Source of the DNA: Schmidtea nova
Lineage: Eukaryota
DNA: 64,000 bases
Reading direction: 5' to 3'
Assembly: GCA_044892505.1 (NCBI GenBank)
Contig: CM097883.1
Location: forward strand, 396,242,001-396,306,000
Shown: positions 11,712 through 12,179 of the stretch, in pieces
Position numbering within the stretch: the stretch's first letter is position 1
Layout: the number at the start of each line of letters is the position of its first letter
The notes under the pieces: model-generated
Told to the model about the DNA's origin: nothing
Seen by the model: only the letters and a program-made list of their open reading frames with translations
The model's database searches: none
Made by a program: the position numbers and the translations under genes

Positions 11712-12179
11712 ATGATTAGAAACATTAATTACAAAGGTAAGACAGATGTATCACACATGAAATTTCCAAATGGAAAACCCCAGCAAATTGTAGATCGAAG
11801 TGGGAAATACCCAAAAATATACTTTAAAACAGGAAGATATAGGATAATGGGATGCAAGGAATTCATTAGTGACGAACAAGTTGAGTTTTACGATTTAAAA
11901 ATTCAATCGATAACTGTAACTGCGGATTTAGGATTCATTTGTAATTTGAATGAATTATCGAGATTGATACCGTGTGTTTACGAGCCAGAATTGTTTCCAG
12001 CTTTAAGGTATACCAAATATAATCCCATGTGTGTAAATATATTTGCAAGTGGGAAATTAGTCATATTAGGATTAAAAAACAAAGATTATTCAACTATAGT
12101 TGATGATATTATTAACGATATAAAATCAGTTATAGAAGATAAAGCCTTTGTTGATTTCATACTAACATGTGACTCATGA
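11712..12179 (+). CDS. tbp: TATA-binding protein homolog (compact, 155 aa)
   Basis: C-terminal repeat KIQSITVTADL..VYEPELFPALRY..VNIFASGKLVILGLK matches TBP repeat 2 (KIQN..YEPELFPGL..LIFVSGKIVLTGAK). Degenerate first repeat IRNINY..KIYFKTGRYRIMGCK. Confidence 0.88.
   Translation: MIRNINYKGKTDVSHMKFPNGKPQQIVDRSGKYPKIYFKTGRYRIMGCKEFISDEQVEFYDLKIQSITVTADLGFICNLNELSRLIPCVYEPELFPALRYTKYNPMCVNIFASGKLVILGLKNKDYSTIVDDIINDIKSVIEDKAFVDFILTCDS

Follow-up and report, generated by a model that had tools for sequence, protein, structure and literature searches.

Beta- and gammaherpesviruses possess TATA-binding protein (TBP) mimics, among them KSHV ORF24, EBV BcRF1 and HCMV UL87, and the corresponding late box is TATTWAA (PMC6541308). 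TBPs are also known in Nucleocytoviricota and mirusviruses (PMC7221094, PMC10132985); these viral TBPs are described as diverged at adapter positions, and several of the viruses have a TFIIB of their own (PMC7221094). Polintons/Mavericks (adintoviruses, polintoviruses), like the element considered here, carry pPolB, integrase, A32 ATPase, protease and capsid genes between long terminal inverted repeats. "TBP" appears as a label in one figure legend on MELD viruses whose PolB is adintovirus-like (Starrett et al. 2021, PMC8502044; bioRxiv 10.1101/697771), and this lessens the novelty that the preliminary description of the present locus had seen in a TBP, which it did not know as a standard Polinton gene. 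In the Polinton/PLV papers that we word-searched, TBP, TATA and late promoters go unmentioned, and the transcription factor noted there is VLTF3. The literature that we searched, with subscription journals and Repbase outside its scope, yielded no account of the mini-TBP family or of a TATAAAC box in Polintons. At issue are how polymerase-less Polintons time their capsid genes and whether these elements run a real viral programme. Here we compare with these systems a small TBP homologue, mini-TBP, from a Polinton of Schmidtea nova.

The element and its genes

The window (the whole stretch of 64,000 nucleotides that was analysed) holds most of the length of an 18.7-kb Polinton (Table 1), in a genome of 1.25 Gb. 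The left terminal inverted repeat lies outside the window (L031:2853-4256), repeat identity is 97.8-99.5%, and the ends are AG...CT, as in Polinton/Maverick. Five of six other copies have the same terminus with unrelated flanks. TA tracts are present at both flanks of the element, the site examined for a 5-6 bp target-site duplication; moreover, the flanks 15586-15680 and L031:2695-2852 are inverted copies of each other (96 nt, 99%), so that the two form a small fold-back repeat, with this copy placed in the TA tract at its middle.

Table 1. Coordinates in the window of the element's genes, boxes and right terminus
Feature	Position	Strand	Remarks
PolB ORF, 1327 aa	156..4139	-	PolB motifs visible; 46-52% to relatives' long ORFs
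133-aa gene	5837..6238	-	common to relatives; DEDD-exonuclease-like by eye only
TATAAACA box before 133-aa gene	6267..6274	-	
Adenain-type cysteine protease	6270..6646	-	PF00770, 4e-6; likely intron
Major capsid protein (MCP)	6724..7944	-	PF21738 double jelly-roll, E=0.005, under cut-off; conserved in relatives
Small conserved gene between penton and MCP	7941..8306	-	
TATAAACA box before MCP gene	7979..7986	-	
Putative minor capsid (penton) gene	8299..9351	-	named by position and relatives; no Pfam match
TATAAACA box inside penton-like 3' end	8400..8407	-	
Retroviral-like integrase with chromodomain	9321..10370	-	two frames, likely short GT-AG intron between
GATAAACA box in integrase 3' end, before penton-like gene	9388..9395	-	
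CATAAACA box before small ORF and integrase	10423..10430	-	
Basic core-like protein	10426..10971	-	relative gives weak Adeno_PX match
A32-like packaging ATPase	10995..11618	-	PF04665, 5e-7
TATAAACA box in ATPase 3' end, before core-protein gene	11002..11009	-	
TATAAACA box before ATPase	11648..11655	-	first base 37 nt ahead of ATPase ATG
mini-TBP gene	11712..12179	+	155 aa, ATG start, frame open; Pfam, profile, AlphaFold, Foldseek
Reduced TBP repeat 1, residues 1-59	11712..11888	+	strands retained; no helix H1 or H2 in the prediction; Phe38 present; Pro23 where the other Phe would be by inference
Full TBP repeat 2, residues 60-155	11889..12176	+	stirrup E91/E93, Phe95, Phe111; altered S66, T68, R99, C107, N109
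Acidic fast-changing gene	12453..12989	+	likely first exon from 12362
138-aa gene	13478..13894	+	near mini-TBP in 20 metagenome loci
Right terminal inverted repeat	14181..15585	.	about 1.4 kb, ends CTACT

In Pfam the PolB ORF gave an Endonuclease_7 match only and none to PolB, and the integrase matched PF00665, with rve_3 and a chromodomain in its second part. Upstream of the polymerase region, at ~5530-5585 (-), the sequence presents an early-type promoter picture (ATTGG, TATATAG, GTCACTT), and short exons are likely from 5472. A small ORF starting with Met-Gly (10370-10422, -) precedes and overlaps the integrase; its counterparts in L038, L042, L049 and L084 have their ATG 33-36 nt after the box. 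The acidic gene on the right shows 39-61% identity among copies whose mini-TBP is 86-96% identical, and it and neighbouring genes in relatives (L032:2621-2962, 3336-4067) share a Y(T/Q)APEL motif. A protein atlas search gave no usable match for it; it may be a fast-changing host-interaction gene. The right-most ORF (13962-14543) runs into the terminal repeat, and the left end accordingly has a second copy of its 3' part (L031:3894-4256), after which comes ~1.2 kb rich in (AAT)n. Beyond the element, we recognized by eye a Ser/Thr kinase-like ORF without introns (29498-30544, +) and pieces of a beta-lactamase-fold-like gene (23744-24100, -).

The integrase and protease genes look intron-split, which points to transcription by the host nucleus. 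As the preliminary description had stated for the part of the element in the window, no RNA polymerase is seen among the element's ORFs. A TFIIB is likewise absent from them; the genome as a whole gives six TFIIB-family matches, those opened being intron-split host genes, and the host TFIIB is intron-split across the repeat that contacts TBP. In the host TBP family (L092-L096) a single canonical TBP is joined by a close paralogue that occupies two nearby loci and by two genes that have diverged strongly. A role for the viral protein in cells with limiting host TBP, which had also been put forward, is unsupported, as loci of the TBP family number at least four in the host.

The mini-TBP protein

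Several lines of evidence support mini-TBP as a TBP homologue owned by the element. The protein matched Pfam PF00352 at 52.1 bits (curated cut-off, 22.9; E=5.8e-14) over residues 62-126 only, that is, one full repeat, and in a PDB sequence search TBPs accounted for 35 of 36 rows. The best of these matches were archaeal TBPs, which we do not take as evidence of origin. Profile-profile alignment nonetheless extended the likeness to canonical TBP over both halves (prob 98.4), and a TBP fold was predicted by AlphaFold (pLDDT 94.3, pTM 0.83), the model matching TBPs in Foldseek over 164-178 aligned columns (TM 0.55-0.72) and giant-virus TBPs (BFVD) more weakly, with a best value of 1e-7. In this model, repeat 1 is predicted to consist of four strands, helices that reach four residues being absent before residue 79, and repeat 2 is normal. 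The two sequence marks noted in the preliminary description, YEPELFP and IFASGK, are both there (residues 90-96 and 110-115), as is the 93-bp spacer to the divergent packaging ATPase (11619-11711). The ORF is intact in frame, as claimed; the protein that it encodes is a shortened, altered TBP. Its assignment to the element also held, as it lies between the terminal inverted repeats and is head-to-head with the ATPase in 46/46 copies examined.

The reduction concerns repeat 1, where the linker medians are 33 and 20 versus 43 and 32 in canonical TBP (10 and 12 shorter); in the size class of mini-TBP itself, a linker has 17 residues versus 32. These linkers are longer in distant relatives, so the shrinkage is graded. 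Three of the four canonical intercalating phenylalanines are kept (F38, F95 and F111); at the place corresponding to the fourth stands Pro23, which we equate with F99 by sequence register, not by superposition. A family search gave 75 matches, 53 of them of the short mini-TBP type, and alignment A1 took 50 of these, three fragments being left out; the TFIIB-contacting stirrup glutamates E91 and E93 are present in all 51 rows. In yeast TBP numbering, mapped through the profile-profile alignment, F116, F190, F207, E186 and E188 are kept in A1, and the following changes are invariant or nearly so: F99>P, V71>N, V122>R, T124>M, N159>S, V161>T, I194>R, V203>C and L205>N. Most of these changes hold in more distant proteins, 138 of 145 of which were aligned (7 were dropped for length). 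There, F116 is kept in 119/120, F190 in 134/137, F207 in 131/131, E186 in 118/136 and E188 in 132/137, and the replacements are F99>P (105/110), V122>R (119/122), T124>M (134/136), N159>S/T (136/137), L205>N (130/132), I194>R (91/136) and V203>C/H (114/132). I194, V203 and L205 are the three positions reported as altered in the yeast altered-specificity mutant TBPm3 (PMC1636458). In TBP, the C-lobe glutamates are described as contacting TFIIB and the N-lobe surface as serving TFIIA, TAF1, Brf and Mot1 (PMC7221094); mini-TBP keeps the former and, according to the model, is without the N-lobe helix surface for the latter.

Copies, selection and relatives

The best 150 of 19,133 candidate genome matches to the mini-TBP gene are all full length, 98-100% identical and stop-free, and a word of 13 bases taken from the ORF is found in the genome 349 times versus 10 for its reversed control; the element has about 340 or more near copies. 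Against divergent copies (64-96% identity), dN/dS was 0.08-0.22 in 13 of 16 pairs, the other three being saturated, and a stop codon interrupts mini-TBP in 3/16 divergent copies. The gene is under purifying selection.

Beyond this genome, the mini-TBP profile finds 63 representatives at E<=1e-30. Sixty metagenome loci carry the gene: 24 with a Polinton hallmark gene, 29 sharing only accessory genes with those 24, and the remaining 7 short, with neither. Among these relatives the Polinton context comes in several gene orders. A tree of 41 rows (with 20 short proteins selected among the family-search matches; midpoint root; two viral rows and no archaeal ones) placed mini-TBP and 21 non-host relatives, 22 short proteins in all, in one group (support 100/99), separate from the four rows of the host and the nine TBPs of eukaryotes. 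mini-TBP is not a recent host capture; the tree names no donor.

Late and early promoters

We listed the 120 nt before each gene in the element and its relatives, with near-copies removed, and these upstream regions fell into two classes, late-type and early-type. Sense ATAAAC occurs in 64/72 late-type regions, against 3 antisense and 8.0 +/- 2.4 (maximum, 15) after shuffling, a count in which many of the metagenome loci are related to each other and in which three classes (o5837, exo2 and c16) were grouped as late after the motif had been seen. In the seven structural classes, sense (T)ATAAAC(A) is found in 51 of 57 regions. The preceding base is T in 50/66 sites and A in only 2/66; the following base is A in 57/66 and G or T in 9/66. 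GTAAACA was found in none of the 72 late-type regions. Across the whole window ATAAAC is not enriched (87 versus 93 expected), so the signal is positional. The box is absent before the ATPase in 2/46 copies, and before the protease the sequence reads TATAAATG, an exception. In one subgroup (L060:1918-3327, L051, L062, L069, L071), a leucine-rich-repeat gene stands behind the same late box.

Early-type genes have a different signature: ATAAAC in 8/52, TATAWAWR in 28/52 (6.6 expected) and TCA[TGC]T in 41/52 (24.7 expected). On these counts, the early-type genes, that of the TBP itself included, appear mostly to carry an ordinary TATA and initiator. Upstream of the window's own mini-TBP gene no clear TATAWAWR is present. 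A TTGTTTTA(A/C) motif is common to mini-TBP promoters that have no TATA (window 11650-11670; L034, L036, L045, L057, L074-L082). Spacing also separates the classes. In 17/26 early TATA boxes a TCA follows at +32/33, and late boxes show no TCA peak there; free-standing late boxes lie 32-38 nt ahead of the ATG in 20/23.

Some boxes lie inside the coding sequence of the preceding gene, where codon usage can be followed. In rows that include close relatives, the penton Ile-Asn is written ATA AAC in all 9 rows having it (10 rows in total; background, 0.38 x 0.22), the ATPase site reads TAT AAA CA in 14/14, and the integrase site reads NAT AAA CA in 8/8 with D, H, N or Y as the first residue; by comparison, the word is retained in 2/11 at a Tyr-Lys-Gln site of the core protein that serves as control, and in 4/11 at an MCP site. 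The late box is conserved at synonymous sites, too.

A held-out element found by its ATPase (L114) has a mini-TBP and the box before 7/7 structural genes. A second Polinton clade (L115, L116, L121, L124, L125, L129) has a two-repeat TBP, and there ATAAAC occurs in 4/31 upstream regions (2.7 expected) and TATAA[AG] in 18/31 (8.5 expected; maximum, 15); the contrast of protein type with box type is one between two clades, the second from a single contaminated assembly. The TBP of this clade is divergent, 183-188 aa long (L115:11568-12122, L125:2229-2777, L129:1418-1981, L130 (G002)), occurs on four contigs of that contaminated bacterial assembly and forms its own clade in the tree. Its neighbours (L115:10818-11573, 12171-12713; L124:5171-5992; L125:1432-2223; L129:158-910) look PC4/Sub1-like by eye, and Pfam gave no PC4/Sub1 match for them. 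Contigs L114-L117 are Polintons inside bacterial genome assemblies, probably eukaryotic contamination. Scans of IMG/VR with mini-TBP, the ATPase (two alignments) and MCP returned no relatives, hence no TBP-less Polinton control, and a search of the S. nova genome with a distant ATPase led to 10 opened loci, all of subfamilies with mini-TBP.

Discussion

We think it probable that mini-TBP reads the (T)ATAAAC(A) late box and recruits the host's TFIIB and Pol II to the structural genes. The case is one of correlation among fold, selection, residue pattern, box, spacing and clade contrast. The preliminary description had proposed that initiation could be redirected to viral TATA promoters; in place of ordinary TATA, the likely target is the variant TATAAAC(A) before structural genes. 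In such a scheme, host TBP would read the ordinary TATA and TCA(T/C)T promoters of the early genes, mini-TBP included, the timing being our supposition. The mini-TBP so made, predicted to be without the repeat-1 helices gripped by TFIIA, TAF1, Brf and Mot1, would escape host control. To judge from their correlation with the box, its changed residues would give preference to C as the seventh base and put up with variation at the first. Repeat 1 of TBP meets the 3' half of the TATA box, and the lost phenylalanine would therefore stand beside C7. Phenylalanine insertion has been described at box positions 2 and 8 (PMC13193136); for a normal TBP, C at position 7 reportedly forces a Hoogsteen pair, and a yeast element with 7C showed no activity (PMC4402545, PMC4457894). 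The stirrup glutamates, being kept, would presumably dock the host's TFIIB, because no TFIIB or polymerase was found in the element. The outcome would be a promoter switch that turns on capsid, packaging and integrase genes late. Several observations count against this scheme: the late boxes lack the initiator that early TATA boxes have at +32/33, TATA-like spacing of the late boxes would leave a leader of a few bases only, and there are exceptions in the box before the protease, in the two copies with no box before the ATPase and in the promoter of the window's own mini-TBP gene.

Two other readings of the box were weighed. Host TBP or one of its paralogues may read it as a weak TATA, with mini-TBP doing another job, such as acting as a decoy or inhibitor of host TFIIB, bending DNA at the termini or packaging the genome. 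Normal TBP can accommodate C at position 7 by forming a Hoogsteen pair, and according to its title PDB entry 1qn3 has it bound to a C(-25) box; the host offers its several TBP-family loci, two of them highly diverged, and KSHV ORF24 is reported also to affect DNA replication (PMC6541308). However, the box tracks the mini-TBP clade, not the two-repeat clade, and the DNA-face substitutions are near-invariant in distant relatives, which fits a fixed DNA target; we regard this explanation as unlikely. Alternatively, the box could be a start-site (initiator-type) element with a leader of ~30 nt, mini-TBP binding either the box or a site further upstream. The late motifs of baculoviruses and poxviruses are start-site elements of this kind, and both the tight 32-38-nt spacing to the ATG and the lack of an initiator downstream of the box would suit one. 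Yet baculoviruses and poxviruses use their own polymerase and none is seen in the element, the motif is the TATA consensus with one base changed, and the second clade is enriched for ordinary TATAA[AG] at similar places. We consider a start-site element improbable.

Two further explanations concern the box and the gene, respectively. ATAAACA fits the forkhead consensus, RYAAAYA, and resembles AATAAA, so that it might have nothing to do with mini-TBP and be a host forkhead site or a signal of the poly(A) kind. Against this stand the absence of GTAAACA and the near absence of antisense copies (3/72), the G or T that ends 9/66 sites and the scarcity of A before the word; furthermore, the box precedes the window's ATPase, where no co-directional gene lies upstream, and elsewhere sits inside coding sequence ahead of stop codons. 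Strand bias, fixed spacing and the missing GTAAACA largely refute both a forkhead site and a poly(A) signal, and we give this idea very little credence. As for the gene, the single repeat that passes Pfam and the stop codon in 3 of 16 divergent copies could suggest a captured host TBP fragment or retrocopy carried as cargo. We reject a host retrocopy, which is hardly conceivable in view of the presence of mini-TBP in every copy examined, a dN/dS well under 1, its clade with 21 non-host relatives with host TBPs elsewhere in the tree, and a Polinton context in several gene orders.

Returning to a late switch operated by mini-TBP, we are inclined, by a modest measure, to go further and propose a one-protein orthogonal promoter system in a widespread Polinton clade, in which a TBP of ~150 residues, rid of the surface for host regulators and with its DNA face re-coded, would read TATAAACA and borrow host TFIIB and Pol II. 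If true, no smaller late-gene switch would be known from a nuclear DNA virus, and the system would be convergent with the herpesvirus vPIC, the second Polinton clade holding a separate full-length TBP. Protein and box together speak for an early/late cascade in elements that are mostly regarded as transposons, and, being matched, they can be tested directly with a single small protein and a site of 8 bp. mini-TBP is also a putative natural altered-specificity TBP that keeps the TFIIB contact, and as such is relevant to TBP-DNA recognition and to orthogonal promoters.

Compared with cellular TBP/TRF, mini-TBP shares the two-repeat saddle, the C-lobe TFIIB/TFB glutamates and three of the four intercalating phenylalanines; it differs in the N-lobe helix surface, the full set of four phenylalanines and the DNA face, where many residues are replaced. 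It is in the TBP family and is not a canonical TBP. With the TBPs of giant viruses and mirusviruses, as these are described, it has in common that it is virus-encoded, divergent and stripped of the eukaryotic N-lobe signature; unlike the giant-virus TBPs, it keeps the glutamates and belongs to a 19 kb genome in which no TFIIB or polymerase was found. The "TBP" of the MELD viruses likewise occurs in at least one mid-size Polinton-like virus, and the legend itself gives no family, structure, promoter or function for it. The herpesvirus vTBPs present the same combination of a virus without its own polymerase, a TBP-like protein and a variant TATA box before structural genes. In detail the two diverge. 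KSHV ORF24 is reported to bind Pol II through an N-terminal domain and to act in a six-protein complex (PMC6541308), whereas mini-TBP, at 155 aa, has no such domain and no vPIC-like partner was recognised among the element's ORFs; mini-TBP keeps the TFIIB stirrup, unlike the ORF24 system; the element's box alters position 7 and the herpesvirus box position 4; and fold similarity to EBV BcRF1 is weak (E=0.03). By analogy, then, mini-TBP would work like the ORF24/TATTWAA system without being a member of it.
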